A stretch of 64,000 bases of DNA, from the NCBI RefSeq assembly GCF_964204645.1, contig NC_134032.1, forward strand, positions 7,676,275 to 7,740,274, written 5' to 3'. Below, piece by piece: positions 9,083 through 38,530 of the stretch. Both the position numbers and the translations under genes were made by a program. A model generated the notes under the pieces. The model did no database searches. It worked only from the letters and a program-made list of their open reading frames with translations, and was not told the origin of the DNA. Numbering within the stretch: position 1 is the stretch's first letter; every line of letters starts with the position of its first letter. Origin of the DNA: Tubulanus polymorphus. Lineage: Eukaryota; Animalia; Nemertea.

Positions 9083-9135
9083 GAAAAAATAAATTTGAGC
9101 GTGCGAGAATTTATTTTTTTTTCGTGAGCCACCAT

Positions 9136-10322: not shown

Positions 10323-10418
10323 AGTAATAGGGATAATGGGGGTTCAAGCCAAAGGTCGAAGGGTCGAGCTCACTCTCCCCTTCAACCTTTGACTTGAAAC
10401 CCCATTATCCCTATTACT
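10323..10418. repeat. Left terminal hairpin of the Polinton
   Basis: AGTAATAGGGATAATGGGG...CCCCATTATCCCTATTACT, imperfect palindrome of about 96 nt. Confidence 0.9.
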
Positions 10419-10722
10419 CCTAATAATTTCATATAAATGAACATTATTTACATGAATTTCATATATTTTAAAATCATTTATATGTTAATTACAAAAGTGT
10501 GAGTAATAATTCATATTTTAACAGATTTCGAATAAAAATATAAGTAAAATAAATGGATAACTAAAAGAGTATAAAAGTGTGAGTAAAGTGTGAGTGAAAT
10601 AGTTTATATTTTAAACATATTTCAATATTTATATTTGTATGAGTTAGATTTTTAAACATTAAAAGTGTCAGTAAAGTGTGATTGAAATATTTCATATTTT
10701 AACATTGAATATTTATATTTGA

Positions 10723-11382
10723 ATGAGTTTTAATGAAAGTTTTGTTATAAAAATGAAGACAGAAGAAGAACCCAACTTCAAAATCGAAATAAAAGAAACC
10801 AATAAATCATTTTCACAGTTTAACATTGGAAATTATATTTCAGCAACAAATTTAGTGCCCGCAAGGTATTATAAAATTGATAACATTACTATGATTAATC
10901 AAATATCATCAAATGAAACATATTTAATTACTGAATTAATTGATACTTTTGATAATGGAGTTAAAAATCCTAAAATATTTAATACAGTTTTCAATTTTTA
11001 AGGAACTTTAGATGAAAACATAATAAACATTCTTAAAACTCCTTTCAATGAAAGAAAAAGTGATATAATACTTTCTAAAGATTACAATGATTTGATTAAC
11101 TTAAGAATTGAAAAAAGACAATTATATTATTACAATTTTGATAATAAACAAATCATCTATAATGAAAATTCATCAAATATTGGCATTCAATGTGAATTAG
11201 ATAATGAAAAATCATATAAAGATGTTGCAGTTCAATGTAATTCAGATGATGAATTTAGAAAATTCAATCCTAATGAAAAAGTGTATTGTTATTGCGGTGG
11301 TAAATATCAAAAATCACATAAATCAAAACATTATCAAACAGTTAAACATATCAATTATGAAAAAATAATAAATATATATTGA
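10723..11382 (+). pseudogene. Polinton accessory gene with C-terminal CxC...HxxxxxH zinc finger, broken
   Basis: ORFs 10723-11001 and 11092-11382; YCYCGGKYQKSHKSKHYQTVKH; homologue at 37960-38383. Confidence 0.6.
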
Positions 11383-11554
11383 AATAAGATTAAGCTGTAT
11401 GTTTCAAATATATAGTAGTTAAAGCATTGAGAAATTAGTTAATGAATAACTGTTAGGTAGTAAGTTTAATTGTTATTTGATTTGAAACATATAAAAGTTA
11501 AATATTTCTAAAATATTAAATATTTATCAATTTAATAATTTTTTTCTGAAATAA

Positions 11555-11763
11555 ATGTATGATTTCAACATACCAACCGGAAGTAGTGATTTGAAGCATT
11601 ATTTAGTGCAGGAGGATTAATTTTGGCTGCATTATATTTTTACTATGAGAATATTTCTAAAGATTTGATGAATGATAATAATAAATTGAAGAAGTTAAAT
11701 GGAAACAATCACAGAAAAAATAACAATAAAAAAGTTAATTTAGAAAATGATTTAGAGGATTAA
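11555..11763 (+). pseudogene. Small Polinton membrane-protein gene, frameshifted
   Basis: ATG sits inside the 22-nt conserved motif at 11536-11557; hydrophobic GGLILAALYFYY segment in a shifted frame. Confidence 0.4.
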
Positions 11764-11801
11764 AACAGCATCGTTGAATTTCATATATTTTGACTATAAA
11801 A

Positions 11802-12807
11802 ATGAGTGAAAATAAGGTATTAGAAATATTGTGCTGTTTTCCCTTAGGTTAGGTCCTCGACAAGACTACAGACACGAACTCTGGTATAGACTTGATATAT
11901 AATATAGATTTTATTTGCAGTTTGGGTACTTATAGTACGTACAGTCATGCTCATTGAACTATGTTACAGAAAATCAGTCAACTACGCAAAGCAGTTACAA
12001 CTGTGTATAATACATGAACATATGATACATAAATCATAATACATACATCCTCAACATTCTCCGGACCAAAAAAATAGAAGTAACAAATGCTTTTAAATCA
12101 ATATTTAAAGAAGCTATTCCAGATAAGATACAATTCGATGAAGGTAAGGAATTCTATAACAAACATTTTAAAAAACTATTATCTGATAACGATGTAAAAT
12201 ATTTTTCAACACATTCAGATAAAAAAGCATCTATTATAGAAAGATTTAATAAAACATTGAAAACTAGAATGTGGAAATATTTTACTGATAATGAAACATA
12301 TAAATATATCGATGTATTAGATGATTTAGTGAAAGGTTATAATAATTCTAAACATAGTTCTATAAATATGAAACCTATACAAGCTAGAAAAGAAGATAAT
12401 TCAGAAATAGTATGGAATAATTTATATGGAGCATTTGTTACACATGATTTCGGTGAACCTAAATTTAAAATAGGACAACACGTTAGAAATCTAAATATAG
12501 AAAAACATTTTATAAATGTTATACCCCTAATTTTACAGAAGAAATATTCAAGATTAAAAAGATAATATTAACTAAACCTTTTGTTTATAAATTAGAAGAT
12601 CTAAAAGATGAAGAAATATTAGGTTATTTCTATGAACAAGAATTATCACTTGTACCAAATCCAGATGAAATAGAATACAAAATAGAAAAAGTATTGAAAA
12701 CAAAAACTCTTAAAGGAAAAAAGTATTCTTTGGTGAAATATAAAGGATATGATGATAAATTTAATGAATGGATTTCATCTAGTAAAATTAAAGGAATAAA
12801 TGAATAA
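11802..12807 (+). pseudogene. Polinton retroviral-like integrase (rve) with C-terminal chromodomain
   Basis: IQFDEGKEF, KASIIERFNKTLK, YNNSKHSSINMKP, KFKIGQHVR, GYFYEQEL and chromodomain YKIEKVL..LVKYKGYDDKFNEWI. N-terminal part replaced by an LTR; frameshift at about 12487. Confidence 0.93.
11830..12068 (-). mobile_element. LTR (BEL/Pao-like 3' LTR with polypurine-tract remnant) inside the integrase gene
   Basis: Minus strand reads TGGTCCGGAGAA then TGTTGAGG...CAGCACA (227 bp, TGT...ACA) with an internal AATAAA; composition differs from the Polinton. Confidence 0.6.
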
Positions 12808-13411
12808 AGATTTATTTTTATTTGAACCGCATAATATGTTAGTTACTGGAGTAACCAATTGTGGTAAAACACATTTCATATTAGATTTGTTAGAAACTAT
12901 TTATAAGAATCATTTTGATAATATAATATTATTCTGCCCTACTTATGAAATGAATAAAACATATAATAGAGATATAGTTAAGATAAAAAAGTTTATTATA
13001 TTAAATCCTAAAACAGTAAAAGAAAATTTAGATAACTGTATAAAAATAGCAATTGATACTTATAAAGGATCAAATACATTATTCATTGTGGATGATTGCG
13101 CAAATTTACATGATTCAAAAGTGAGAGAAAGTGAGTTATGTTATTTAGCTTTCTCTGGGAGACATTTTGGGATAACAACATGGGTTTAAAATCAAAAATA
13201 TAATTCAATTGTTAAAGACTTTAGGGAGAATATAAGATTTCTAGTTTTATTTTATAACAAAGATAAAAAATCTATGCAACAATCATTGGAAGAAAATCAA
13301 ATTATACCTACTGAATTACATGATGAATATATGAATAAATTAAAGAATAATAAAGGTTCAAAATTATTACTGAGATTACAATTTCCATATGAATATAAAT
13401 TTATAAAATAA
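12800..13411 (+). pseudogene. A32/FtsK-like genome packaging ATPase with a premature stop
   Basis: Walker A GVTNCGKT, Walker B LFIVDD, SGRHF motif; TAA at 13187-13189, then the frame continues (NQKYNSIVKDFREN) to 13411. Confidence 0.93.
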
Positions 13412-13424
13412 CTATTTATAATTT

Positions 13425-14050
13425 GGAATATTATAGAAACTAATTTATATATCTATATACTAGACGTACGAGTAAGAAAGTAAGATTCTTGCCAAGAAAG
13501 TAAGAAAGTAAGAATCTTGGTAAGAATTCTTACGTACGTCTAGTATATAATTATTATAAATTAGTTTTATAATAATTATTCTAAATTTAAATTATAAAAA
13601 TGAATAAATTATATGTTTTCTCTTAATAAAAATAAAAATAGATTATATTATAACTATTTCTATACTTAGATTAATAATTTTATTTTTTTAATTTTTATGA
13701 AAACTAAATTATATATCTATGTACTAGACGTACGAGTAAGAAAGTAAGATTCTTACCAAGAAAGTAAGATTCTTAGATTCTTACGTACGTCTAGTACATA
13801 GATATATAAATTATTAAATGAATTATATAAAAATGAATAAATTATATGTTTTCTCTTAATAATAATAAAACTAGATTATATTATAACTATTTCTATACTT
13901 AGATTAATAATTTTATGTTTTTAATTTTTATGAAAACTAAATTATATATCTATGTACTAGACGTACGAGTAAGAAAGTAAGATTTCTTGGATTCTTGGAT
14001 TCTTACTCGTACGTCTAGTATATAGTTATATGAATTAGTTTTATAATAAT
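13425..14050. repeat. Three tandem palindromic units between the convergent gene blocks
   Basis: TACTAGACGTACG...CGTACGTCTAGTA cores at about 13458-13545, 13722-13796 and 13955-14020 with variable AAGAAAGT/AAGATTCTT interiors. Confidence 0.92.
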
Positions 14051-15191
14051 TATTCTAATTTTGTTTCTAATATAATTATAAAATCATCTCTGTTTATATC
14101 TAATTCACCAAAAGTCTTAGGTAGATTTATTAATTTTAATTGAGCCATCTTAACATAATAATTAGTAGGAAAATTAGCTTTTTCTCTTAATTTTTCTAAG
14201 TATTCATCAAAATCATCAAAATCAAAATCAAAATGATGTCCAAAATTATTTATCAGATAACTTAAATCAATTTTTCTAAAATATAATAATTTATGTATTT
14301 GTTTAGGATTATCTTCTGCATAAGCTAATAATTTATCAAATAACAAGTTATAGAATATATAATATTGGTTAGTTTTAGGATTAAAATATTTGATAAATTT
14401 ATTTGGGTTATTTAACAATGGTATCATACTCACCATTTTATAAACATTAATTAGATGTAACTTTGATTTATAATGAGTATTTTCATCAACAGGTTCAATT
14501 TTCTTATTACAATATTGGCAAATTTTATTTCTTTCTATTTCTTCTAATTTCTTTTCATGTTCTTCTAACTTCCTTTCATTTTCGATATGCGCTTGAGATT
14601 TTTTATGTTTAGAAAAATTACTTTTAGAAATATCTAAATCACAAATGTTACAATGTTTTTAGAATCATCAATTGTTTCATTATAATTAGTTTCAATTGTA
14701 TCAACATTATCTGTTATATTATCTATGGTACCATTTGTTTCAATTGTATTAACATTATCTATGATATCATATATTATATTATTATCAGATATATTATTAT
14801 AATTATTCTTTTCTTTTTCTATATGTTTATTTGATTTCTTATGTGATGCCCAATTTTTATATGATATATATTTCTTACATACATCACAATATTTTTCATT
14901 TGTCTTTTTGGTTTTGATATCAGGTTCAATCTTATCATTATTAGATGTAGAAGGTATTACATTATTAGATGTAGAAGGTATTACATTATTAGATGTAGAA
15001 GGTATTACATTACTTAAATTATCAACAACACCACTTTTATTATTATCTATTTCTATTAGTTTAGTTTTATAAATTTTGAAAATAGGATCAAATATCAAAG
15101 CTATATTACAAGGTATTACATAATATAAACCATCATTATTTTCATGTGTATCGATGTATGGAATATGTTTATACACTTTACCTCCTTCCAT
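14050..15191 (-). pseudogene. Polinton multi-zinc-finger protein, frameshifted
   Basis: YCDVCKKYISYKNWASHKKSNKH, then CNICDLDISKSNFSKHKKSQAH and CQYCNKK...H...H in a shifted frame; internal 24-bp repeat (NNVIPSTS)x3 at about 14938-15012. Confidence 0.7.
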
Positions 15192-15236
15192 TTATTATAC
15201 AAATTTTTATTAAAGTTAAAATTTTAATACATAACT

Positions 15237-16467
15237 CCATTTAATTGAGAATTTACAATATTTAATTGCACGTCAGATATAATATAAATGTGCATTTTGA
15301 AATTTAGGCTTCTTTTTTCTTTGTCATGAATAATTGTATTCCATCTTTAGTGTTTTGTAATTTTTTTCCAGAACCATATAATGAATTATCCTCTGTTGTT
15401 CTAAAATCTAACCATAATGCATATTTATTACCGGTATAATAATCAATTTGATTAATATTACAATTTTCAGATGATTTTACTTTTTCATTCATAAAATGTT
15501 TTCTAATTTCTGGCCATTGATCAATCATTCTCATTCCTTGACAAAATATTTTATTTGCTATTCCTTCGATAGTTATTTCTACTTTTGTTATTTCAGAATT
15601 ATAATAATTATCAACATTTATTGCGCCATAAGTATATGTTGCAATGGTAAAAAATATTAATAGACCTTTAATAGATCTTCTTGGGAAGTTAATATTCTCA
15701 TTAATTATTTCATCATTTGCATTAATAGTTACAGTTTTAAATTTATCAATATAATCATATAATAATGAAAATCCTTAGTTGTATTTAGTTTGAATTATAC
15801 TTGAAATATTTTCATCAGTTACTGTATCATATTCTAAACATAGATTCGATAATCTATAACTCATATCTTTATTAACGCTAGATATTACAATTTCATTTAC
15901 AGGAGCAAAGGTTATTTCGAATATAACATCTTCTTGAATTGCGTATCTATATAAAGGTGCATTATTATTTATCAATTCAAAGTCTAATGGAATTTTATAT
16001 TTGCTTCCATATATACTTTTTATCAATTTATCTACAGCATTAGTTAATATTGCATTATGTGCTTCTGATCTTAATTTATTTTGGTTTTCTGATTGGATGC
16101 CTTAAAATATATTATTTCTATTTTCTTTAGTTAACCATAAATCTTTATAATGCATAAATAAATTATAATCATCTAATGAGAAAACTGTTTCTGGACCAAT
16201 CTTTATAGTTAATTTTTTAATCAAATATCTTCCAACATTATCAACAACATAATTATTATTATTACCGATTACTTTTATATCGGCTGATAAATAAATACTA
16301 TTTGGAACATAAAAAGTATTTTGTGTTAATCGAGGAATTCTAACATATAAAGTTTCATCGGGATTAATATTAGAAGGGTTATGAGTAATTATATGATGTG
16401 ATCTTTCTGCTTTAATAGCATTAGATATTCTATGATTCTTAGAAGGATTGATATAACTCCCACTCAT
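15237..16467 (-). pseudogene. Major capsid protein (double jelly-roll, hexon-like) with several nonsense codons
   Basis: ITHNPSNINPDETLYVRIP, VVDNVGRYLIKKL, LEYDTVTD, PRRSIKGLL, YALWLDFRTTEDNSLYGSG resemble invertebrate Polinton MCPs; stops at 16102, 15775 and near 15304. Confidence 0.85.
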
Positions 16468-16935
16468 TTATTTAACAAAAAAATTAATTATTTATTTTTT
16501 ATCATGTTTACTAACCCAAAAATAATAGCACTTACAACTGTAATTAAAAATAAAATAATATGTTCAGCAGCAAAGTTAATAATGTTTCCTGCAGATTTCA
16601 ATATAAAACCAACAATTGATGCAATAATTCCTGGTAAAGCTGCAGCAGATTTTTTAGATAGTTCCCATAAATATTTTGCTAATTTCTTTAAACCATCTTT
16701 AACTTTATCTTGTATAGAATTATTATCATTCGGGATCCGGTTCCACAGTTCTTGATTAAATCTGACTCAGAGTTAGTTTTTAACTCAGGGTCAGAAACGA
16801 ACTCTGAGTTAGCTGACTCCGAGTTAGTTTTGCGTTCCACAGTTCTCATTTAACTCAGAGTTTACTTACTCAGAGTCAAAGTCATATCTCCATAGTAACC
16901 ATCTTAATTCAGAGAAGTAATTGGTAATTCTCAAA

Positions 16936-17462
16936 ATGGCAACGTGCAGCAACGAAAAACAGCTTAAAAAAGAAGTCCTAACTTTACTAAAGACGAGATG
17001 GCCGTTCTCACTGTCGTTGTAATGAAAAATGGTGATGTGTTATTTTCAAAGTTGAATAACGATGTCACAAACAAGCTGAAAGCGAAGAAATGGGGAGAGG
17101 TGGCTAGTGCAGTAAACAGCCTAGGGCACTGTGTGAGAAAACCAGATGAACTTAAATTCAAATGGAAAAACATGAGCGCTAAAGCAAATTGTATGAATTC
17201 GGAAAGAAGGAAACTAGCACACAAAACTGGAGGGGGGCCACCACCGGAAAATTTGATAAAGAACGTCGACGAGACTATGGAGAAAATTATAAGCGCTAAC
17301 GAAAACAGAGAAGCTTGGGTCGGAATAGATGCAACACTCCACTTAGATCCTCCCATTATCATGTCACTAAGTCCAGAAAGTAATATATATCTTTATTCAC
17401 TGACAGGGTCAATCATTTTTGTTTTTAACTTTGCTTTCACCCAACAGCATATCGTCAAATGA
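16936..17462 (+). pseudogene. Harbinger Myb/SANT-like DNA-binding protein, N-terminal part
   Basis: KRSPNFTKDEMAVL...KWGEVASAVNS...ELKFKWKNM...TGGGPP; apparent frameshift near 16965. Confidence 0.82.
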
Positions 17463-18176
17463 TAGCTTGATGACGTGCTACACTTTGACCTTTGACACAC
17501 ATGCGCAATGGCGTCTAAATATCTCCCTGGAACCGAATCCAAGAAAATATAAGATTATAAAACTTACATGTTACGGCTTGGCAGTTACATCACAGACCCA
17601 GCGTTGCAAATTACTAATGCACATATAAATCCCATCATTCTGATAATCCAGTTGGTCTCGTGCTGCGATTATTTTCCGCACATTTCGGCTTAAAAACGAT
17701 AGTTTAGCAGACACCATGTGCAGAAAAAATGGCTCATGTCCGGCTAATTTATGCACCGTCATAGACGTGGACTCGTTAGGTTCGAATCCCAATTTTGAAC
17801 AACAGTCGGGAGCATTTTAAATTATGATGTATTGATTAATCAATCACTTTTTTCTGTTAAATTTAAGTATCAAAGATTGAGACGTCACCGTCGAACGCGA
17901 TTACTCTAATGGGGGATGACGGGACCGTATACGAAGTCACCGAATCATTTTTGCCATTACCGGCAACTGAAACCAACGTTTCTGAGATGCATGTTCAAGA
18001 TATAAGCACTTCCGATAATATTGGAACAATTCCCAATACCGGTACGTATAAATGGGTTTGCATTTGTTTCTGACAAATTACTTAGATGGTACACTGCATT
18101 GAAAAGAAAAAAAGTCACTACGCGCAGAACATTGCCAAATCGGACAGTATCCTGTTAATTTCCGGCCTTGAACTTA

Positions 18177-18721
18177 CCATCGGCATTACACACACCCTGT
18201 GCATTTATCGAATGAAAACTTTTTCGGTTCACAAAGTCTCTTTCAATTTCATTTCTTGAAGCTTGAATACGTATATGTGTTCCATCAACACAACCAATAA
18301 CACCGGGTAAATTTCCGACTTCATAAAAATCAGATTTCGTTTTTGCCAGTTCTGCTGGGCCTCTCGGAAACTTGATAAAATCTGCTTTCTTCGAGCAAAG
18401 TGCGTCGGTTACACGAGTAACAGATCTCGAAACTGTTGATTTCGATACACCAAAACTATCTCCGATTACCTCCAAAAATGAGCCACTGGCATAAAATCGA
18501 AGTGCCATAAGAACTTGCAGTTCGACAGTCAAAGGCAATCCACGATTGCACGTTTTTTCTGCCATCAATGGTCTACATATTTCAACGATTCTCTGCACAC
18601 CCGTTCTTGTAAAGCGATATCTATTATAGCATTCGACATCCGTGATTTCGAGTTGATTTGTAATCCTTCGATATTCTTTATTCTTGGCTTCTCTACCCGC
18701 TAATAAGTAGAATGCCGCCAT
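18177..18721 (-). pseudogene. Harbinger (HARBI1-like) transposase exon 1 only
   Basis: YRFTR, LQVLMALRFYASGSF, GVIGCVDGTHIRI, NRKSFHSINAQGVC then GTAAGT donor; no downstream exons found. Confidence 0.88.
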
Positions 18722-20399
18722 TTTAAACTCTGAGTTAAGCATTTTAATTCAGGTCTGACCCAGAGTTAGAATTTCACCCTGAGTTAAGGAATTTAACTCT
18801 AGAGTTAAATTTAACTCACCACTGTGGAACCGGATTTAACTCCGAGTTACTTTTAACTCTGAGTTAGGGAATTTAACTCTGAGTTAAAAGTTAATCAAGA
18901 ACTGTGGAACCGGGTCCTGGGGTTTATCTGGTTTATCGGGAGTAGGAGTAGATTTCAAAGCATTTGATATAGCTAAACCTATCGTTGTAAATACCATAGT
19001 TACAGATGTTAGAATTGAAAGAATTGTTATTCCTTCTAATTTAAATAATAATGTTATTCTATCTTTCAATGATATTTTTAGAATCTGGTTTTATCAACAA
19101 ATCTTTAACAACAACTTTTAATTTTTTAATATGATTTTTTAATATAATGTATCTCTTTCTTTTTCCTGTAATTCTTTGTTATATTTTAAATCATCTATTT
19201 CTTTTTCTAAAGCTAACTTTCTGCTTTCATAATCAGCTTCCTCTATTACTTGAAGATTTTTATTTAATTCTAATTGTTTTAATTCTTCATTTGCATTAGC
19301 TAATTCTTTTTCTAACATGGTTATTTTAGAAAATCTCATCTTAATATTAGCAATTTCACCAGCTGATATTTGTACACCTTTAATTTCTCTACGTGATTTT
19401 TCAGGAAATTGTTTTAATTCTTCATCAGTTAAATCAAGTAATCCTTTTTCTAGTAAAGATTGTATTTGATTTATTCCAGTTTCAGCACCAGATGTATCTG
19501 ATAAACTATTCATCTCTTCTTCTGAATCTCTTAATCTATCAATTTGTTTTTCTAATGTTAATTGTAATTGACTTGAATCATTATCAATTGGTTGAGTGTC
19601 TCTTCTCGATGTTTCTGGTGTTGAAGTTCTTAATTTATCTAATCGATTTGCAAAATATTCATCAGTTTCTGGATCAACATCAGTAGGATTTGGATTTGGA
19701 TTTTTAAATGGTGAATATTTGTTTATATCAATATTAGGAATTGGTTCTTCTTTATTTATTCTATCGAGTGCATTCCATATAATTCTGAGAAATTCTCTAC
19801 CACCTTTTGAACCTTCAATTGTAGATAATGCTCGCATTCCAGGTTCAAAAATATTTTCTTGACCCATTCTAGATAATTGAATTGTTACAATATTCCTATT
19901 TAATTCAAGATTTTAATACCATGAATCATTTTTAAATTCTAAATTATTCATGAAAAATGGGTCATCTTTTAAAATTTGTTCTACAACACCTTCTGAATCA
20001 ATTTCATCTATTACAACTTTTGGTAATAATTCGTTAACAATTGTATCTGTTACTCTAGATTTCATTCTATATAATTCCATAGGTTCATCAGGATATTTTT
20101 CTTGTTGTTTTTCTAATAGTTTCATAAATTCTTTTCTTTCTGTTCTAGTTGAAATTCTACCACTTACAGGAGCTTGTAAATATCTAATTAATTTTTCACG
20201 TAATTCGGAATTAATTCCATCATAATCATCATCATAATCATCATCTTCAACTAAATTAGTATTATATGCCGTTTTATCATCATTACTGAAACTCGTTTCA
20301 TCAAAATTAGGTGGTTGTTCATCACTTATACCGGGAGCGTCACCAAAAGTATCAATTCCAATATCTTCTCCACCTTCTGTCATTTACATAATAAAAAAA

Positions 20400-21723
20400 T
20401 TAAAATCTAAAATATAATATTCCTCCGATTACAATTCCTATACAAGTTAAAGCTAATTTAGTATTTTCATGGGATTTATTATCATCATTTAGTTTAATTA
20501 TTTCATGTTGAATATTATCAGTTCTAATATTTTCTGATGTATTGTAATCTTTTATTTTAGAATCATTATTTAATTTAATATTATTAGTTTTAGTTTCTGT
20601 TGATTGAATGTGTTATTTATTTCTTTCACCTTCCATTAATTTTGGAGCAGTAATAATCTTTTTATTTATATCATTCAATCCAAATGAATTATTTATTGTT
20701 GCAGTTTTAATTAGATTATTATAACCAATTATATTTCCCATCTTAATACTAAATCATTAGAAATAATTAATAGATTAGGGCTTATACAATAATTTAATCT
20801 AATATGAGATTTATCTAAATAATTTTGATATCTTACAATGTTTTCCGGAATCGATCTATTTTTATCATTATGAATTGAATCTTCAAATAATACTTTCAAT
20901 TGTTTCTGCGCATCGAATGAAGTGTTATCATTTCCAATTATTGGGGATCTTGTTTCAACTTGCGCACCTTAAATACATATCAAATAAGTTCTAATAGATT
21001 GATTTATTCTTTGTATACCAGCTTTAGTAAAACCTTCACCATTTTCTAAAATGAAATTAACCCAACCATTATTGTTTTGTTGTTGTATATTATTATAATA
21101 TTTTGGTAATTCATTCCAATTTAGTGTTCTTATATCTGAATTTGTCATTATTTTTCCAAATTCTTTAGTATATAATATTCCTAATCCACTCATTGTTCCA
21201 ATTTTTGCTCTAAAATCTTTATTTGAATTAATATTAAATTCATTACATATTTTATAAAACTTAGAAAAATTAATATTATTATTCAATTCTTTAAAATATT
21301 TTGAACCTGGTAAAGGACATTCTAATTCATCTAATATTAATTTTATTTGAAAATATGTATGAAATCTAAAAAGTGATAACATCAATGGTAAACTTGGCTT
21401 GTTTAAATGATCATTCCAACTAATTCCACATCCTGTCGTTGCACAATAAACAGCAAAATTTAATTGGTTCTGCCAATACTTCATATTAGATTTTAATAAC
21501 CATTGTTTTGCCTCATTTAAATTTTTGAAATTAATTGTATACACATGAAATATATTTCCATCTTTACATGAAAATTATTACTTTCAGTAACATAAATATA
21601 TAAATCAATTAATGAATCTAAAACTTCATTTCTATATGTAATATCTTTATTAAAATCTATTGCTGAAATATTATATTTAATTGATTTATTATATTGGAAA
21701 GCTTTTGGAAAACTATCTGCCAT
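20400..21723 (-). pseudogene. Conserved Polinton gene of unknown function with C-terminal TM helix
   Basis: WQNQLNFAVYCATTGCGIS, FRFHTYFQ, GFTKAGIQRINQSIRTY, ends HENTKLALTCIGIVIGGILYFRF; frameshifts and stops present. Confidence 0.7.
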
Positions 21724-21739
21724 TTATATAATTGAAAAA

Positions 21740-22174: not shown

Positions 22175-22193
22175 TTATTTAGCAAAAAAATTA

Positions 22194-22615: not shown

Positions 22616-22639
22616 TTATTTAGTAAAATAATTATGCAT

Positions 22640-22861: not shown

Positions 22862-22965
22862 TTATTTATCAAAAAAATTACTATCTTCAAAATATTTAGT
22901 TAACTTATTTATGATTAAATCAACATTTATTTCATTACTAGTTTCATTTGTATATATTTCAATTA

Positions 22966-23217: not shown

Positions 23218-23233
23218 TTATATAATGAAAAAA

Positions 23234-23994: not shown

Positions 23995-24011
23995 TTATTT
24001 TACATATTTTC

Positions 24012-24364: not shown

Positions 24365-24393
24365 TTATAATACATATTTTTATTAAAATTTGA

Positions 24394-27140: not shown

Positions 27141-27904
27141 GTTAGTTTAACAATACCTATTTTTCTTTACCGAATTAACCGTGTATTTACTAAGATAAAT
27201 CTTTAGTGTACCGGGGAATCGTAGGCCTAAACTAAACACGCCGAAGAGATATAGCGGAGAAAAGCTGTTATGTCGACGAGGTATCAAAATAAAAGAATAT
27301 ATTACTTTATTCGGCCGCGGGCTTCAACCTCTATATCAATACCATCAATACTCTATATTTCCTACAGTACATACCGATCATTGTCAAATGCACAAGGTAT
27401 TTACTAAATACAAGTATATAACACAATCCTTTCCGTATGCTGGACTCACACTTGACATTCGGAGTAAGCGTTCGCTGTGGGGGAAAGGGATCGTTCGCTG
27501 TGTCGCTTGAAGTGTTTATCGAGTTTGACGCGGCTTTAGGCTTACCGGTACTGAGCTTTACTGTCTCAAACAAACACAGTTTAATTGTTGCGTTTATTAA
27601 CGGACTCATTGGATTGAACTTTAAACAAAATTTACGATATTTAGGTGGGTTGTTATTCAATAGGCCTACGACCAATCTGTCCGGATGTTAGGCCTACATA
27701 GGCTAGTAGCCTCTACTAGGTTAAGCGTTCGCTGTGGGGGAAAGGAGATCGTTCGCTGTGTCGCTTGAAGTGTTTATCGAGTTTTACGCGACCTTAAGGC
27801 TTTAGTATGGTAGCTGATAAGGCCCATGCGTAAAAAAAACACGTATATGCAAATGAGGGCGACATTATGACAAAACGACAAAACTAAAATAACGCGACAA
27901 AACA

Positions 27905-29836
27905 ATAATTTTGGTTTTGTCGCCCGGGACAATTCATTATTTTGGTTTTATCGCCCGCGACAATTCATTATTTTGGTTTTATCGCCCGCGACAGTTCATT
28001 ATTTTGGTTTTGTCGCACGCGACAATTCATTATTTTGGTTTTATCGCCTGCGACAATTTTTTTTTTTCGCGGTTTTATCGCCTGCGACATTCAATATTTT
28101 GGTTTTATCAACAGCGACAATTCATTATTTTGGTTTTATCGCCCGCGACAATTCATTATTTTGGTTTTATCGCCTGCGACAATTCAATATTTTGGTTTTA
28201 TCACCAGCGACAATTCATTATTTTGGTTTTATCGCCCGCGAAAATTCATTATTTTGGTTTTATTGCCCGCGACAATTCATTATTTTTGTTTTATCGCCCG
28301 CGACAATTCATTATTTTGGTTTTATCGCCCGCGACAATTTTTTTTGTCGCGGTTTTATCGCCTGCGACAATTCAATATTTTGGTTTTATCGCCCGCGACA
28401 ATTCATTATTTTTGTTTTGTCGCACGTGACAATTCATTATTTTGGTTTTATCGCCCGCGACAATTTTTTTTTTGTCGCGGTTTTATCGCCTGCGACACTT
28501 CAATATTTTGGTTTAATCGCCTGCGACAATTCAATATTTTGGTTTTATCACCAGCGACAATTCATTATTTTGGTTTTATCGCCCGCGACAATTCATTATT
28601 TTGGTTTTATCGCCCCAGCAATTCATTATTTTTGTTTTGTCGCACGTGACAATTCATTATTTTGGTTTTATCGCCTGCGACAATTTTTTTTTGTCGCGGT
28701 TTTATCGCCTGCGACATTCAATATTTTGGTTTTATCACCAGCGACAATTCATTATTTTGGTTTTATCGCCCGCGACAATTCATTATTTTGGTTTTATCGC
28801 CTGCCACAATTCAATATTTTGGTTTTATCACCAGCGACAATTCATTATTTTGGTTTTATCGCCCGCGAAAATTCATTATTTTGGTTTTATTGCCCGCGAC
28901 AATTCATTATTTTTGTTTTATCGCCCGTGACAATTCATTATTTTGGTTTTATCGCCCGCGACAATTTTTTTTTTGTCGCGGTTTTATCGCCTGCGACAAT
29001 TCAATATTTTGGTTTTATCGCCCGCGACAATTCATTATTTTTGTTTTGTCGCACGTGACAATTCATTATTTTGGTTTTATCGCCCGCGACAATTTTTTTT
29101 TTGTCGCGGTTTTATCGCCTGCGACACTTCAATATTTTGGTTTAATCGCCTGCGACAATTCAATATTTTGGTTTTATCACCAGCGACAATTCATTATTTT
29201 GGTTTTATCGCCCGCGACAATTCATTATTTTGGTTTTATCGCCCGCGACAATTCATTATTTTTGTTTTGTCGCACGTGACAATTCATTATTTTGGTTTTA
29301 TCGCCCGCGACAATTTTTTTTTTGTCGCGGTTTTATCGCCTGCGACACTTCAATATTTTGGTTTAATCGCCTGCGACAATTCAATATTTTGGTTTTATCA
29401 CCAGCGACAATTCATTATTTTAGTTTTATCGCCCGCGACATTTCATTATTTCGGTTTTATCGCCCGCGACAATTCATTAGTTTCGTTTTGTCGCCCGCGA
29501 CAATTCAATGTTTTGGTTTTGTCCCACGCGACAATTCAATATTTTGGCTTTATCGCCTGCGACAATTCAATATTTTGGTTTTATCGCCAGCGACAATTCA
29601 TTATTTTGGTTTTATCGCCCGCGACAATTCATTAGTTTGGTTTTGTCGCCCGCGACAATTCAATATTTTTGTTTTGTCGCCGGCGACAATTCAAGATTTT
29701 AGTTTTATCGCCCGCGACAATTCATTTTTTGGTTTTGTCGCCCGTGACAATTCAATATTTTGGTTTTATCGCCAGCGACAAATGATTATTTTGGTTTATT
29801 GCCCGCGACAATTAATTTTTTTGGTTTTGTCGCCCA
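27905..29836. repeat. ~31-bp tandem satellite (TTTTGGTTTTATCGCCCGCGACAATTCATTA) with higher-order blocks
   Basis: About 60 units seen directly; diagnostic variant blocks recur near 28461, 29090 and 29311. Confidence 0.97.
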
Positions 29837-29926
29837 CTTAATTAGCTTTTGAATAATTAGGCCAATTAATAACGTAATAAAGACTTATGCTTTCGCCTAT
29901 TTTAAGTCGAATAATCTGATATAGTA

Positions 29927-30338
29927 CGGAAGCGATAAAGGGCCTCGAGTTGTCGCGTTCAAACTCGACAAGTCGCCATATTTATGTCGATATATCGCGA
30001 TATATCGCGTCAAGTCCACATGAATATGTCTACATATCGTGACGTTTTCACAACAAATTTCGCTTTTTTGCTCATTTTCCACGGGACAAGCCGTCATTTG
30101 AAGACATGTCTAAATGTAAGATGAGGACGCTAGTAATATGACGACTGAGTTTCAAGTCGTCATGAATATGTCGACTTGTCGCGAGGAAAATGGTCGAGAA
30201 AACGAAATATGTCGTCTAAACGTCACGATATATCGACATATTCATGTCGACTTGACGCGATATATCGCGGTATGTTGACATAAATATGGCGACTTGTCGA
30301 GTTGGAACGCGACATCTCGAGGCCCTTTATCGCTTCTG
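29927..30338. mobile_element. MITE with ~110-bp TIRs and TA flanks; partial second copy from 30440
   Basis: TA|CGGAAGCGATAAAGGGCCTCGAG...CTCGAGGCCCTTTATCGCTTCTG|TA; the same left end recurs at about 30440-30560. Confidence 0.8.
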
Positions 30339-30829
30339 TACATATAGTGTCGAATATTAAGGTCATTTTGGCAGATTCTTTTTTTTTTAAAGTGATATTA
30401 AAGCGATCATTCAAGTAATCCTACTTAATGAAAGATCTACGGAAGCGATAAAGGGCCTCGAGTTGTCGCGTTCCAACTCGACAAGTCGCCATATTTATGT
30501 CGATATATCGCGATATATCGCATCAAGTCAACATAAATATGTTGACACATTGTGACGTTTTGACGAATTTAAACTCAGTCGTCATATCACTGGCGTCCTC
30601 ATCTTTCAGCAACGCCAGTCACATGGAGTCGTACGTGTTCTACTTTCTGCGACGCGACACGACTGTCACAACCAACCGACGCGCTCTTGCGACTGGCAGA
30701 AACTAGTCGCACACAATCGTATTGCAACCGACTTGCACTGAAACTTGCGATGCAACGCGAGGATCGCATCGTGTCACAAGACCAACCTACATCCGGCTTT
30801 AAGTTACTTCGGAGCACCAGAAATATATT

Positions 30830-31330
30830 TTTTTTCGTTCAAAAGACCTTTCGCTTGAAAATTCTTTCGTCGGAACAAAATTTATTTCGTTCGAACCAAT
30901 AATATTCTATACGATTGAACCAATTTGAAAAAATCGTGAGAACAAAGTTGAACAAACTTTTTTTTGTCCAAACGAAAGGTTTTTCGTTCGAACTATCGTT
31001 CAATTGAACAGAATCTTTTTTAATTTGAACAGAATTTTCTTGTCAGAACATTAAGTTTTTCGTTCGAACAAGTATATTGAAAAAAGTTCAATCGAACAGA
31101 ATTGTTTTCATTCAAACATTCGTTCGAAAAAATTGTTTTCGCTCGACCAAATTTTTTTGCCGGGAAAATTTCATTTCAACAATAACATAGCTTTTTATTC
31201 GAACACATTTTTTGTCAGAATGAAGAAAATTTTTGGTTCAAGCAAAAAGCGTATTGTTCGATCAAACAGAATTATTTTCATTCGAACAAGATTTTCTTGT
31301 TGGAACATTAAGTTTTTGGTCGAACAGCGT
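30830..31330. repeat. Degenerate TTCGTTCGAACA-motif repeat array
   Basis: Repeated TTCGAAC/GAACAGAA motifs with A/T runs. Confidence 0.6.
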
Positions 31331-31369
31331 GTTAAGGTCGATTTGGAAATTTACTCGGTCTGGTATATG

Positions 31370-31675
31370 TTGGATTACTGTGTATGTCATTTGTCAGGAC
31401 ATTAAACAGAAGACAACTTAGGATACTACCTTGCGTGACTCCACTAGTTTGACCGACTTATTCCAAGATGAAGCGTTCCGTTGATTTCGGCTACAAGTTT
31501 TCGTTCAGAGATAACTGCTGAGCCATTTGGGCGACCTATAATTGATACTGTTTCCTAATAGCCTGTTTAGTAATGGCTGATGTTGTGCCTTATCAAATGC
31601 TTCGTCGAAATCCACCGTTGAACGGGATTCTAAGACTGTGCAGAAAACCCGTTATCGCTGCTTTGCAGCTATATT
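31370..31675. repeat. 306-bp dispersed repeat, copy 1 (direct copy at 37185-37490)
   Basis: Near-identical sequence from TTGGATTACTG to GCAGCTATATT. Confidence 0.9.
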
Positions 31676-32288
31676 AATTATTATTATTTTCTTCCACACT
31701 TTTTTTACTAAAAGAACAAAGGCTTTGTTACCTTGACGCTGTTGTCGATACAATCCATCTGATATCATTCAGCTCACTTCGATCTACAAATACCCCGTGC
31801 GTATTTGAAAAATCGTCGTTACAAAAGCACTGTCGGGCCGTAGACATCGAAAATTGAGCCCCATTCAAAAAGCCGACATGTTTTTCTAAGTCCTCTATCC
31901 GAAATCTACCGCACGTTTCTTGTCACATCAATTATCAATTCAAGCATAAATTAACAAATTTATTACCCAAAGATTGCACATTCTGTCGCGGTTTTTAAAA
32001 ACTAATTTTAAAGGGTAACTGACAGATATTTTATTCTGGCATAATTTCCTTGGAAAAAAATATATAGAATACGGATTTGTGAAGGTTTTTTGCTCTAAAA
32101 GTCATAGATCTATTAAAAATAGTACTTTAGTAACTGCATTTTCTTGCGGTGTGTTGAACTAGTTTCCGCAAACAAACATCGGCAATTTCCGGAATTCTCA
32201 AGTGCGTGACGTCACTACATGTACCAGGAAGTCTTTTGTCTCAGCGTTCATCTATACAAATGATTATTTACATGTTTACTTTTCCAAA

Positions 32289-35200
32289 ATGGGACTTCGC
32301 TGTGTCGCTTATGGGTGCAGTCATGGCAGTGCTGACAAAGCAAGTACATTCTACTGGCCAAGTGATGATAAGACGAGGGCCATGTGGACGAAATTTGTAT
32401 GCCAGAAGCGTTTAAACTGGACAGGGCCGACCCGGTATTCGGTCTTATGTCGGTATCATTTTGAAGAAACAGCTTGTGCAAATAAGATGATGTTTGACGC
32501 AAATTTCGCGAAAAAGTAAGCTTCATAATAAAACCCTTGAAATATAAATGAATAAATCCAGCCCATATGACTGGAACCTCCTGATTTAGGTGTATAGTAT
32601 AGGATTTGGATGATACTGAAGATTTATTATTATGATGAGATGGTCCCCGGACAACCTGGCCTGTAAAAAGCTACAATAGCGCTTTCATCATATGCAGGCA
32701 TCGTACTACAAAAAGGGACCATTTCACAATATTAAATCTATGAATTACTGAGTGAAAAGTATCTTTATCTTATAATAATAGACTACTCCATTTATTGAAA
32801 ACAAGATTAAACATAGCTGTCCTAAAAGGTCATAGGTAGCACAGGCCACAAATCAAAATGAATATCAAAATGCAACATATAATATCATTATGAGAGCTTT
32901 GCCAAATGAACTGATTTCTGAAGAAAATGTTTTATTTATTCAGTTTACTGCTAAAGTCAGGAGCTGTACCAACAATTCATATGCCGGTACAGCCAAGTCA
33001 ATTAAACTCAGCTGACGAAATGCTTTTTTCACCCCCCAGACCAAAGGGCAGGGCTGCATATGAAAAAAGAGAAAGAAAAAGAATATTTAACAATGTGGCG
33101 AACCCTCAAAAAGCCTCAGCTGTAATTCCCGATGATGAAGCTTCGTTTCAAGACCCGGACTGCCTAGTTGAGTCCAACATTGCCGCCAAATCTAAAGAAA
33201 TTGGCATACAAAGTGCACCAGATTGTGTGTCGAAAGGTGAGTATCTTTTTCAGTAGTGCCTTTTTCATTGTTGATACTGGTTTTTCACAGAGCAAAAGTT
33301 TAATTATTGATCTTTTGATAAATTCAGCTATTCAGACGCTTAAGACACCAGCAAAACCGAAAGTAGTAGTAACGTACAAAACAAAACCTGTTTATGTATT
33401 CAAAAAAGTACGCCAAACCTCACGGGGGGTTCAGATAACTCCTGCAACAAAAAGTAAGCACTGCATTTAGGAAATATTTTCAATATAATCAATGATTGAC
33501 TAATTTCTTATCAGATTTGATCACAATCCTATATCAATACTTATAATGAAAAAGTAAAAAAACTTCATTTAGGCCTATAGACTATTTTAAAGTTTTCAAC
33601 CATGCATTTCAGCGATTGCCACAGGGGTAAATATGAAGAGGAAAGGTCGGCCCCTTGGAAGCAGCAGGAAGACCTTTGTTGTTGATAGCAGTTCGTCTGA
33701 GGATAATGATTCTGATGATGAATACATTCCATCTGAATCTGACTCGGGTAGTGATAATAACTATGATTCTGATGAAGAAAATATTATTTTTGATGAAATG
33801 AGGTAACTTTTTTATGAGTATGTCTCAGGTAATGCTTATTGCTGATGATTACTAGTGCCACCCTACAACGATCTATCTATCCAATTTTCAGAGATGACAG
33901 CCAGCTAGATTATGGGAAACAAGCTAAAGTAATCGTTTTCGAGCATAAACTATTTGAACTTTTCCGTCATTGTAATTCTTGCGGTGGTTATAACAAGATA
34001 GAGAAAAGAACCAAAGGCACATTACTAGTTGTTCAAACAACATGCCAGTTGTGCTGGAAACAGAGTAGTTGGCAGAACCAGGATTTCATTGCAGGGAAAC
34101 AAGTTTTGAATATTTTGATAAGTGCGATGATCTTGCTTACTGAAACTGGCCAACAAAATCTATACGGTTGTTCGAGTAAGTCACCAGAGATGTGAACTTC
34201 TGATATTGTTAAATATTCAAAATTGTGTCCTAAATTCATTTAGGCCTAATATCCTCTGTTTCGATAGTTGAAAATTGATAGTGGGAACATAATTTTTTTC
34301 CAGGTTGCTAAATATTGCCATTCATTCAACGAGATCGTTTTTCCGCTATTAACGAAATTTCTTTCATGGAGCAATTAACCGGGTTTGGGAAGTCAGCAGA
34401 AAAACAATTTTGGATGGTTTAAATGGTGAGCGATTACTCGGTGGTGATGGGAGATGCGACTCCATGGGACACTAAGCCAAATTTGGGAGTTACTCCATCA
34501 TGGACATCGAGGCGAAGAAAGTTGTTTCACTGCAACTAGTGCAGGTAGATATACTGACGTAAAAGTTTTCAGATTGAAGTTGTGAGTTAAAATCTATTTT
34601 TTTAATAGCCATTGATTAAAAATGCCATATTGTGCAATTCCTTTCTAGTCAACTGAAGTTAAAAACTCAAATGCCATGGAGTTGGAGGGCCTAAAACGCT
34701 GCACAACAGAATTAGGGAATATACCGGTAAAGGCATTTATATCAGATATGCATTTGCACATTGGAAAATGGATAAGGACAGTATGGAAAGTTAGTCACTA
34801 TTATGACTGCTGGCACGTTGTCAAAAGTAAGTTAAAAAAATCTTTGCATAAATGTCTGTATAAATTACAAATGCAAAAATACAAATTTGACTCAAATCTA
34901 TGATTTTCAAAACTATTTGATTGAATTGATAGATCAGTTTCGAAAATTGCGCATAGAATTGAGTCAAAATGTCAAATACCCTCTTAGTTTTTCTTCACAT
35001 TTTGGGTCTTTCAGCAATCACTTTTTATATCGTTGGATAGCTTGAAAAATCTAATAATCTATAATTTCAGGTATAACAAAAAAGTTAGAGAAATTAGCGA
35101 AGACCAAAGCCTTTGTGGACATTCAAGACTGGGTGAAATCATTAAAATATCATCTATACTGGTGTGTTTCGTCTTCCCCGAAAGACGATAAGGAATCAAT

Positions 35201-36085
35201 CAAGAAAAAATGGCTCTCAGCTGTGGAACATGTTCAGGGGGTACACGTCAATTGTCAACACAAACCTTATGTAGCTCAGAAAAAGTGGTTGTTACCAGGT
35301 ATTTAATTGAAAACCATGTACTAGATAGAATAGTTCTATACCCAATCCTGATTTAGAAAAATGTGGAAGTAATCTATCAATTTAATCGTCTAGGTACGCC
35401 AGCAGGTGACAAGATTGAACAAGTTTTGAAAGGAACAAGATTAGTGAACAAGGTCACCAAAATGTCACCATATGGACAGACAAGCCAATTAGAATGTTTA
35501 CATTCTGTCTTCAACCATTTTGCCCCGAAAATGCTTCAGTTTTCATACAGAGGACTCCTCTCAAGGTCAGGCAAAAGCTCAAAACTGAATTATGGTATTA
35601 ATTCTATTCTAATATGCTATTAACATATTTTAATATCATTCTAGGCTCCACATTGCAGCAATGCATTTCAATGAAAACAGCTCCAGGATGCAAAAACTAA
35701 AAAACGATGGAACTGGTCGTGTGTCATTGATATACCCAAAATATAAGAAACGTCATGTGCTTCGATTTTTGCTAAATGATGCAACTTATGGTAAGAAATC
35801 CATATTAGATTTGCACTGACGTCTGCAGTTAAATGATTCAAGATAACTTTGTCACTTAAGGTGTCTTAATGTCAATTGAATAGCATATTTTAAATCAGTA
35901 TTCTATTTTCTTCAGATTATGTCAATGATTGTTTGAATGAAATCATAGGAGATATCAAAAAGAAACAACATACTAAAAAAAATATTGTTAGAGCTCCTCA
36001 AAGCCTGACCAGTGGTCGAGAACGAGTTTCAAAGGAAGAGGCGTTGGAACTGCATCGTAGTAGATTTGTAAAGAATATGAAATGA
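32289..36085 (+). pseudogene. THAP-domain KolobokP transposase, multi-exon, with stops
   Basis: THAP CVAYGC...W..F...LCRYHF...AVPTI; GDGRCDSMGH*AKFGSYSIMD; MELEGLKRC; HYYDCWHVVK; HLYWC; TSQLECLHS; AAMHFNEN. Nonsense codons near 34349 and 34473. Confidence 0.82.
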
Positions 36086-36190
36086 GTTGAAAATGAAATG
36101 TAGAAAGATGAAAAATTTTTATTCTGTGATAAAATTTCATATAGAAAATTTAATACTGAGGTTATTTAACTAAATGAAATGCTATGGCAA

Positions 36191-37083
36191 TCAGTCTTCT
36201 TTTTCTTCTTCTAACGCTGGCCATCGGAAACCTTTGTACAAATCCTCATCCCCATCTTCAGAAGGAAAATGAGCCCGGATGCAGGAAACGACACAGGACG
36301 GCAAAATAACACGATTTTTTCTGCCACAGTATCCCAAACACCATCGGGTAAATTGTCGATAGGCTATGTGTCTACACTTCTCTTCGATGGGTCCTTCAAA
36401 CGCTTTATTTCCATATTGTTGTTTGAATGTTAACCAGGCTACCTGCAACACCCATTTATCTGTACAAACAGAGGCAAATGCATTAGTGTCAGTAATGCAT
36501 TTAGGAACGGCCTCGTGGTGTTCAAATTCCAAAATTTCTGCCAATTTTTGAGTGACCTCTGGACTCTCCTGGCAACAGCAACATTCTGGTTCTGTGGGCA
36601 ACACCTGGCAGTGAGTACACGAACACCTTAAAATAAAAACAATAATTGCGAAAATTAGACTTGGGTTCTAGAAAGTGTCCATAAGTTCAGCTCGGCCCTA
36701 ACCTTATAGATTTCTACTGACAAGAAAATAACAAGCAACCCAGTACGGACACAGTACACGACGACGGTACAATGCTATGAAAATTTATTTTTGGTCTTAT
36801 TGTTATTGAATTGCATGGCATGCATCAATGATAAAAAAACAGGGTAAGTTTCTATCAGGGTTGGTTATTTAAACCATAAAATGTGCATTATCAAAAATGC
36901 ATTTATATATTAAGATACAAACACATATTAGCAAATATAAAACCCACCATTCGTGTAAAATATCCAGGTTCAGCCTATTGAGTCTGTCGGGATTGTTCGA
37001 CGGAACAATGGATTCATTTGTCTCATCTGGCTCCGGTTCGTATAGATACGGCCCAATGACTTCTTCATTTTCTGAATCTCCAG
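36191..37083 (-). CDS. P2X7 cytoplasmic ballast-like Zn-binding protein (KolobokP second gene), 5' end truncated
   Basis: Exons 36948-37083 and 36191-36626; PYLYEPE, W|CSCTHC...ECCCCQE, CIT..AF..VC, RHIAYRQFTRW, RVILPSCVVSCIRAHFP, YKGF. Confidence 0.85.
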
Positions 37084-37173
37084 GGTCCAGTTCCACAGTT
37101 CCGAGTTAAGATTTAACTCCGAGTTAACTCATCGAAAATGAACTAACTTTAACTCAGAGTTAACTCTAACTCA
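37084..37173 (+). mobile_element. Isolated Harbinger end related to the 16734 element
   Basis: CAG|GGTCCAGTTCCACAGTT followed by TAACTCNGAGTTA palindromes. Confidence 0.75.
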
Positions 37174-37184
37174 CAATTTTTATT

Positions 37185-37490
37185 TTGGATTACTGTGTAT
37201 GCCATTTGTCAGGACATTAGACAGAAGACGACTTAGGATACTACCTTGCGTGACTCCACTAGTTTGACCGACTTATTCCAAGATGACGCGTTCCGTTGAT
37301 TTCAGCTACAAGTTTTCGTTCAGAGATAACTGCTGAGCCATTTGGGCGACCTATCATTGATACTGTTTCCTAATAGCCTGTTTAGTAATGGCTGATGTTG
37401 TGCCTTATCAAATGCTTCGTCAAAATCCACCGTTGAACAGGATTCTAAGACTGTGCAGAAAACCCGTTATCGCTGCTTTGCAGCTATATT
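37185..37490. repeat. 306-bp dispersed repeat, copy 2
   Basis: Direct copy of 31370-31675. Confidence 0.9.
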
Positions 37491-37960
37491 TTGGTTTTGT
37501 CACCCGCGACAAATCAATATGTTGGTTTTGTCGCCCATGACAATTCAATATTTTGGTTTTTATTGCCCGCGACAATTCATTATTTTGGTTTTATCGCCCG
37601 CGACAATTCATTAATTTGGTTTTATCGCCCGCGACAATTTTTTTCCCGGTTTTATCGCCCGCGACAATTCATTATTTTTGTTTTATCGCCCTCAACAATT
37701 CATTAGTTTGGTTTCGTCGCCCGCGACAATTCAAGATTTTGGTTTTTCTGCCGCGACAATTCATTTTTTGGATTTGTCGCCCGCGACAATACAATATTTT
37801 GGTTTTATCGCCAGCGAAAATTCATTATTTTGGTTTTATCGCCCGCGACTATTCATTAATTTGGTTTTATCGCCCGCGACAATTTTTTTTTTGTCGCGGT
37901 TTTATCGCCCGCGACAATTCATTATTTTTGTTTTATCGCCCGCAACAATTCATTAGTTTG
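37491..37960. repeat. Second array of the 31-bp satellite
   Basis: Same unit and orientation as 27905-29836, about 15 units. Confidence 0.95.
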
Positions 37961-38530
37961 GAACTTATAGATACTTTAGATAATGGCGTCAAAAATCCTA
38001 AAGTATCTAATACAGTTTTTATATTATAAAGGTAATTTAGATGAAAACAAAATAAATATTCTTTAAACTCCTTTTATGAAAGAAATGATGATTTGATACC
38101 TTCTAAAGATTACAATGATATGATAGAGTTAAGAATTGCGAACAACGACAATTATATTATTTTAATTTTGATAATAAACAAATTATCAGTAATGAAAATT
38201 CATCAAATATTGGAATGTGATTTAAATAATGAATTTAAAAAGTTAAATCCTAATGAGAAAGTGTATTGTTATTGTGGCGGCATATATTTAAGATCACACA
38301 GATCAAAGCATTATAAGATAATTAAACATATCAATTATGGAAAGAATTATAATTCTATATTGAAAAGAGATTCATATATATGATATTCATATAAATAAAG
38401 TTCATTTATGTTAATATTATTAGAGTAATAGGGTATATGTCTTTTCATATCAGAGGTTGAGAGGGGCGAGTGAGTGAAAATGAGCTCGACCTCTCGACCT
38501 CTGGTATGAAAGGACACTTACCCTATTACT
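37961..38530. mobile_element. Terminal fragment of a related Polinton (zinc-finger gene remnant plus hairpin terminus ending ACT)
   Basis: ELIDTLDNGVKNPK and YCYCGGIYLRSHRSKHY are homologous to 10723-11382; hairpin 38424-38530; reverse complement of 38375-38530 aligns with 10323-10468. Confidence 0.85.

Follow-up and report, generated by a model that had tools for sequence, protein, structure and literature searches.

Terminal palindromes with a proposed role in priming are already known from virophages and Polinton-like viruses of protists. In the Halocafeteria elements, a preprint (bioRxiv 10.64898/2026.07.28.741278) describes palindromes within terminal repeats that adjoin the insertion site of rve-integrase elements. 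The HNH-bearing pPolB2 group of Maverick/Polinton elements was described by Jeong et al. in 2023 (PMC10748475), and the domain layout was given by Krupovic et al. in 2024 (PMC11161782); a term search of the accessible portions of these two papers returned no passage on a palindrome or hairpin at Polinton ends. Here we describe two hairpins, termed end L (10323-10418) and end R (38424-38530), of decayed copies of a Maverick/Polinton family in 64,000 nucleotides (nt) of the nemertean Tubulanus polymorphus (GCF_964204645.1, contig NC_134032.1, 7,676,275 to 7,740,274). This whole stretch is referred to as the window, and its positions are used throughout. Both hairpins are real and far beyond chance. 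We favour, tentatively and with a little less than even confidence, the reading that the hairpin lets the 3' end of the displaced strand fold back and rebuild a duplex origin for protein-primed copying in a pPolB2-type Maverick.

The window family shares with pPolB2 Mavericks an integrase with a chromodomain, an A32 ATPase, a capsid protein and, in its relatives, a polymerase with terminal protein (TP)-like, OTU and EndoVII-like domains. It differs in that an inverted duplicate of its terminal sequence comes after the original, that no protease gene was found, and that neither a pair of terminal inverted repeats (TIRs) nor a target duplication joins L and R. The Halocafeteria palindromes occur in a protist and preferentially with replication genes other than protein-primed polymerase B (pPolB), in contrast to the present ones, which belong to an animal Maverick whose relatives keep the terminal-protein serine. 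Compensatory changes, kept mismatches or a fixed orientation are not mentioned in the parts of the preprint consulted, and its supplements may contain mismatch details. In the adenovirus/PRD1 panhandle, as outlined in part of PMC11886824, the displaced strand likewise re-forms a duplex end for protein priming; the Maverick duplex would form locally within ~100 nt and not between genome ends. The rolling-hairpin ends of parvoviruses (PMC8242256) and the flip/flop telomeres of vaccinia (PMC8956199) are also terminal hairpins with kept mismatches, and some parvovirus ends exist in one form only (PMC8242256). By contrast, neither an HUH Rep nor a flip/flop mixture was seen for the Maverick, and it integrates with a sharp 5'-AG end. 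We found no literature on covarying, mismatch-marked hairpin ends in animal Mavericks with a terminal-protein polymerase, in a search whose coverage left out most subscription journals.

Fold and paired changes of the two ends

The hairpins lie exactly where a preliminary description of this DNA had placed them. End L, on the plus strand, consists of an outer arm (10323-10363), a 14-nt apex and an inner arm (10378-10418), and end R, on the minus strand, of an outer arm (38530-38490), a 25-nt apex and an inner arm (38464-38424). The outer-arm start of L at 10323, reading 5'-AG, is the true terminus. Four sequencing runs were found to contain all or part of the stretch, along with one further run carrying the same species label. 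In X5, a run containing the family, of which 1,934 million letters (about 12% of the run) were read, 1,329 reads break into unrelated flanks at 10323 and 239 at 10322; these breakpoints identify 10323 as the true insertion boundary. DNA folding gave -33.7 to -42.0 kcal/mol (z -11.2 to -13.9) for the two strands of both ends, and none of 200 shuffled controls was equally stable on any of the four strands. The strand carrying the 3' end is the more stable one at both ends (-42.0 vs -39.3 and -39.7 vs -33.7 kcal/mol), and the terminal 3'-OH, once folded, sits on a template with a 5' overhang. No Rfam family matched at gathering score within 8500-39000, that is, no known structured RNA was detected there.

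L and R are homologous, with 73% identity over 169 columns when the inner flank is included. Comparison of the 41 stem positions reveals 26 pairs that are identical, nine that have changed on both sides and are still paired, two identical C·A mismatches and four other cases. This bears out the earlier proposal that the termini are homologous but diverged, with changes paired across the stem; of the examples offered for it, the third (GTGTCC/AGACAT) contains two mismatches. Ten of the 12 outer-arm differences lie opposite inner-arm differences (hypergeometric P 6e-7 over all 41 positions, and P 1.5e-5 without the invariant first 10). The inner arm opens with an exact copy of these 10 invariant terminal bases.

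The kept C·A mismatches are situated at stem position 27 (10349/10392 in L, 38504/38450 in R) and stem position 35 (10357/10384 in L, 38496/38458 in R); L has a further G·A mismatch at 10342/10399. On the strand carrying the 3' end the two C·A sites read as G·T wobble pairs. Two sites had been reported as retained and unpaired; the retention stands, and the unpaired state does not, since they are wobbles on that strand. The marks at positions 27 and 35 are identical in all three end copies of the window (L, R and a remnant discussed below) and in most reads. A folded single-stranded end, as suggested previously, is a fair inference, since pairing persists from copy to copy and the mismatches do not fall at random positions.

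Arm copies and polymerases of the family

The X5 depth is about 2,700 over the outer arm, about 1,290 over the inner arm (2.1:1) and about 7 over the nearby flank, corresponding to roughly 370 outer and 180 inner arms if the nearby flank is single-copy. Inner-arm reads run on into the conserved subterminal segment (62-81% of the inner-arm depth), and hence the hairpin is not a free miniature inverted-repeat transposable element (MITE). A stand-alone MITE with the two arms as its TIRs was rejected, as L and R have a conserved inner flank in common, these reads show it too, and no duplication surrounds either hairpin.

The variants listed in the reads extend the comparison of L and R. In the outer arm, 10 of 12 stem variants have a mirror change at the partner position, the other two being at mismatch sites; the 17 inner-arm rows comprise 10 mirrors, two at mismatch sites and five to which we return below. 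The variant shares of the two arms are moderately correlated (Pearson r 0.71, p 0.02, n 10). Of the reads over position 27, 81% show C in the outer arm and 88% show A in the inner arm, and the mismatch is repaired in 12-19%. Position 35 is absent from the 40 variant rows shown of 47, among which the lowest listed shares are about 7%, and it varies below about 7% if the rows are ranked by share. Flip/flop isomers of the hairpin, for which a search had been recommended, would appear at ~50% at positions 27 and 35; they are not seen, and the integrated copies, to which this result refers, have one orientation.

The apex is variable in length, with 177 reads exiting the outer arm and re-entering the inner arm after other letters. 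A free apex together with a kept stem and kept marks would also suit a recognition signal, in which the fold and the mismatches serve an integrase, packaging or a terminal-binding protein rather than priming. Among the element's genes are those for an ATPase and a capsid protein, and hairpin mismatches of vaccinia serve packaging and I1 binding, not DNA synthesis, according to part of PMC8956199. A linear duplex, whether integrated or packaged, would hide the fold unless it is extruded as a cruciform, and about half of the arm copies have no recognisable partner arm, as the 2.1:1 ratio indicates. We consider a pure recognition signal quite unlikely.

Polymerase-bearing loci were surveyed for the same arm. 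Most of the 119 loci are distant (27-45% identity), many of them lack ends, and the arm is present in one, L029. It starts there after a higher-GC flank, has outer-arm letters at both marked sites and forms a single arm with no hairpin (z -0.2); an intact polymerase of 1,336 amino acids (aa) lies 204 nt from the start of this end. The single arm of L029 indicates that the hairpin, judged by its sequence, is the family's ordinary terminal sequence of ~45 nt plus an inverted copy of the same. No terminal hairpin comparable to L and R (score 18 or more, loop up to 80 nt) was found in the 119 loci, a weak negative given the distant loci and the missing ends. End-pattern scans of viral contigs and prokaryote genomes gave nothing, and a single-protein scan of viral contigs gave no locus. 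We also note a perfect palindrome with a 74-bp stem at positions 1-167 of L048, the start of a distant polymerase-bearing contig. It was set aside as a terminal hairpin and is likely an assembly artefact, one arm standing alone in the near-identical L049.

A neutral origin of the structure has to be weighed against these observations. One template switch would have duplicated the terminal sequence head to head, arm-to-arm copying would keep the likeness, and the mismatches would survive by luck or a founder effect. The paired changes are partly clustered as multi-base swaps (positions 11-12, 17-18, 25-26 and 38-39), which is the outcome expected of templated copying. The repair of position 27 in a minority of reads and the functioning of L029 without a hairpin at its sampled end point the same way. 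Copying tracts that fix positions 26, 30 and 38 must nevertheless miss positions 27 and 35. In a simple geometric model this has P 0.37 for 2-nt, 0.03 for 5-nt and 0.003 for 10-nt tracts, so that tracts of about 2-3 nt are needed to spare both marks, and the uniformity of the marks across the window copies and most reads also speaks against a neutral history. We regard such a history as improbable.

The preliminary description had presumed an intact polymerase whose N-terminus might carry an HUH nuclease domain. The window holds no intact polymerase, just a frameshifted C-terminal remnant on the minus strand (24397-25057) with the last ~220-240 aa (about aa 1120-1360 of relatives); it is 78-84% identical to the full-length proteins P0001-P0003, and the N-terminal ~1,100 aa are absent. 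The domains were read from intact relatives. The L029 polymerase was modelled over aa 101-680 (mean predicted local distance difference test, pLDDT, 83; 52 alignment rows) and for its first domain alone (pLDDT 88; 49 rows). The first conserved domain matches the little-finger/PAD of Y-family polymerases (Z 7.8-8.2, root-mean-square deviation 2.6-2.9, 94-105 aa), and the model matches viral OTU proteases (Z 7.2-7.5), both at middling Z. Foldseek returned no match at E 0.001 or better, its top rows being Y-family polymerases. Fold matches of these two kinds are how the terminal-protein and protease domains of Polintons were defined, as set out in part of PMC11161782. In 43 of 52 rows, L029 and the three closest proteins among them, a G-S-G loop preceding the last strand carries the serine; the OTU cysteine and histidine are each found in 50 of 52.

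The EndoVII-like motif PF02945 was detected in P0001-P0003 (E 0.0002-0.01, below cut-off) and in 10 of the 11 relative proteins scanned, most of them below cut-off; the nuclease motif CxxC, DH.H and CN is conserved in 47-52 of 52 rows. An EndoVII/HNH-like domain inside the polymerase, the layout given for HNH-bearing pPolB2 in PMC10748475, is found in relatives only. The putative pPolB2 label rests on this domain and on Caenorhabditis briggsae proteins among the matches of the remnant (49-50% identity over the remnant).

An HUH nuclease domain was sought in the relatives and not found. No H-hydrophobic-H column occurs in three or more of the 52 rows. Nor is there an HUH protein among the top 50 fold matches of either wide search with the L029 models, which start after the first 100 aa (a zinc-finger region); genes lost from the window lie outside both tests. 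Protein priming looks intact in this polymerase clade, as far as the models indicate. The proposal of a rolling-hairpin end rather than a protein-primed one is thus not borne out: the relatives keep a TP-like domain with its serine and the OTU cysteine and histidine, no HUH domain was detected, the hairpin has one orientation, and L029 lacks it.

Readings of the folded end

The observations themselves comprise the fold with its paired changes, a sharp insertion boundary, one fixed orientation, and TP-like and OTU domains in close intact polymerases; the mechanism proposed here goes beyond them. In the fold-back reading, strand displacement would be followed by folding of the 3' end on the inner arm, giving a duplex that resembles the origin. 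This local fold would form in vivo on the 3'-end strand and replace the long-range panhandle. The C-to-T marks of the inner arm would still pair, as G·T, but would spoil the first GGTCGA motif, such that the outer arm alone would be read as an end. A local fold-back origin would explain why the tip is copied exactly over 10 bp, why the arms covary, why there is a single orientation and why the terminal protein is retained.

Several points weigh against this reading. Given the end of L029, the fold is not needed at every end. The domain tests were made on relatives that are 70-84% identical over the C-terminus, with the N-terminus of the window polymerase missing. The bias of G·T pairs toward the 3'-end strand holds at four of five sites and is not significant (p about 0.19), position 14 in R being opposite. 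The X5 tallies are pooled and not per molecule; single-arm reads can be placed on either arm, and up to 19-38% of the inner-arm depth possibly consists of such reads. Five inner-arm variant rows have no listed mirror, and the Spearman correlation of the variant shares is just 0.59 (p 0.07, n 10). At position 28 an additional C·A mismatch, with no listed mirror, occurs in 45% of inner-arm reads. With the integrase broken at 12074, L and the gene core possibly do not belong to a single native molecule. Finally, the paired 3'-OH at the base of the stem is geometrically also a primer, which favours self-priming.

In the self-priming alternative, the folded 3'-OH primes the second strand, for example after excision without a terminal protein, and the closed end is then cut open by the EndoVII-like nuclease of pPolB2, at a marked mismatch or a cruciform and in one orientation. 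The geometry of the fold, with the 3'-OH lying on a template that has a 5' overhang, suits it, as does the EndoVII-like motif of the close polymerases, even with PF02945 below cut-off. There are precedents as well: some parvovirus hairpins that carry mismatch bubbles occur in a single form (a section of PMC8242256), and hairpin priming is proposed for the Halocafeteria elements in part of bioRxiv 10.64898/2026.07.28.741278. The absence of a 50:50 flip/flop mixture, the retained terminal-protein serine and OTU residues and the lack of an HUH motif in the 52-row alignment argue in the opposite direction. Moreover, L029, with no hairpin at its sampled end, also has the EndoVII-like motif, and so do distant pPolB2s. 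We judge self-priming unlikely.

Taken with L029, the 2.1:1 arm ratio could mean that every element folds at one end and is plain at the other; the same ratio would result if subfamilies were mixed or diverged arms undercounted. Together with the fixed marks and the single-arm end beside a polymerase, the ratio has led us to consider a Maverick lineage with two unlike ends. The ~45-nt terminal repeat would be present at both ends and the hairpin at one, the G·T-marked inner arm would self-prime the excised strand before terminal protein is available, and the pPolB2 EndoVII-like nuclease would open the end in one orientation. This arrangement is distinctly improbable in our estimation. If true, it would combine protein priming with hairpin priming and assign a role to the nuclease of pPolB2.

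The decayed copies and the wider family

The flanks of L and R (TACATC and CTCAAA) show no common target-site duplication, with at least 3/6 mismatches at every offset tried, no TIR pair of 100-1,500 bp joins the two ends, and no alternative partner end for either was found in the window. Host-like DNA of 13 kb without a Maverick protein match (25060-37960; 32-41% GC, with a DDE transposase and 31-nt satellite arrays) separates the polymerase remnant from R. A single insertion spanning 10323-38530 was rejected on these grounds. The missing duplication, the intervening host-like DNA and a directly oriented second copy of gene X, described below, suggest that L and R are probably the hairpin ends of two decayed copies from different subfamilies. 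This origin fits the paired changes, which decay after insertion could not produce. The missing duplication argues against one insertion and not against Maverick membership, the other end of each copy having been lost; in the left copy the polymerase-side end is the one lost in the window. No homolog continuing the interrupted left flank was found.

Inside its hairpin, L has a subterminal segment (10419-10494, plus strand) that is common to the R end in inverted orientation (38347-38423, minus strand; 72-78% identity). It is followed at 10494-10729 (plus strand) by subterminal repeats of ~88 nt with GTGTGAGT units, which are candidate protein-binding iterons. A third end remnant (8889-9128), missed by the preliminary description, has subterminal GTGTGAGT repeats and part of an inner-type arm (9047-9080), which shows the inner-arm letter at each of the two marked sites. 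The AT-rich apex of this remnant pairs with itself and is longer than in L and R; the outer arm is lost.

The left copy, spanning 10323 to 25057, has mostly 20-28% GC. It contains remains of the protein-primed type B polymerase, retrovirus-like integrase, packaging ATPase and capsid protein by which Maverick/Polinton elements are recognised, together with small open reading frames (ORFs). Gene X (10723-11382, plus strand), with an in-frame stop at 10999-11001 and a C-terminal Cys/His cluster, has no Pfam family and no homologs; comparison of its C-terminal 126 aa by language-model features gave only a weak GIY-YIG lead (scores 0.83-0.86). The second gene X copy is a remnant (37961-38397, plus strand), direct in orientation relative to the L copy and cut on its left side by satellite. 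It is 75% identical over 488 columns to 10933-11414, a divergence about that of the hairpins (73%). The gene X region (10723-11382, 37961-38397) is ~7-8 times deeper in X5 than DNA near the integrase (~430 vs ~55), which suggests a non-autonomous derivative family of end plus gene X.

The integrase with its chromodomain (12026-12807, plus strand; Chromo E 2.8e-6) is frameshifted and lacks its first ~118 aa; it is 85% identical to the integrase beside the polymerase of locus L027. The A32-type packaging ATPase (12800-13411, plus strand; Pox_A32 E 3.9e-9) is interrupted by a stop. The major capsid protein (15304-16467, minus strand) lies in three pieces (Capsid_N E 0.0014, below cut-off) and is 33-36% identical to a protein of the polymerase-bearing locus L061. 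A Harbinger-type insertion with a Myb protein and a DDE transposase is nested at 16733-18917. No adenain-type maturation protease matched among the 45 window ORFs scanned, in a copy that is deleted in places.

Three tandem AT-rich imperfect hairpins with a common core occupy 13414-14052, between convergent gene blocks (fold -126 kcal/mol, with no shuffle control), and could act as 3'-end signals of transcripts or as an internal origin. Eight minus-strand sites, most of them at ORF starts, read TAAATG behind an AT-rich run (15189, 16465, 20381, 21514, 22172, 22859, 23215 and 23992). These presumably resemble the late-promoter motif of poxviruses and hint at a helper-virus or element-specific promoter. 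Gene order varies among the close relatives L025-L029: the counterpart of ORF 24095-24364, downstream of the polymerase here, is upstream in L025 and L026, and L027 has its integrase after the polymerase on the same strand.

Elsewhere, host genes for a leucine-rich repeat (LRR) plus seven-transmembrane (7TM) receptor (80-1756) and an Srw-type G-protein-coupled receptor (6715-7947) mark the window as animal DNA. A nested inverted repeat at 51256-58786 (arms of 2,069 nt, 100% complementary; spacer 2,076 nt) is a foldback element, a recent inversion or an assembly artefact. The 31-nt satellite arrays lie at 27893-29835 and 37487-37961 (62 and 15 copies), and a 310-nt direct repeat (31366-31675 and 37181-37490, 97% identity) brackets 5.8 kb.

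The hairpin ends add an animal pPolB2 family to the carriers of terminal palindromes, which had mostly been protist elements lacking pPolB. They bear on how Polintons restart from an integrated copy without terminal protein, and on how displaced single strands are converted: the handling of the terminal protein at Polinton integration is described as unclear in PMC11161782, and direct evidence for panhandles is said to be lacking in PMC11886824. A covarying end of ~100 nt with two polarised marks would be a small, defined substrate with which protein priming, self-priming and cutting by the embedded nuclease may be separated in vitro.

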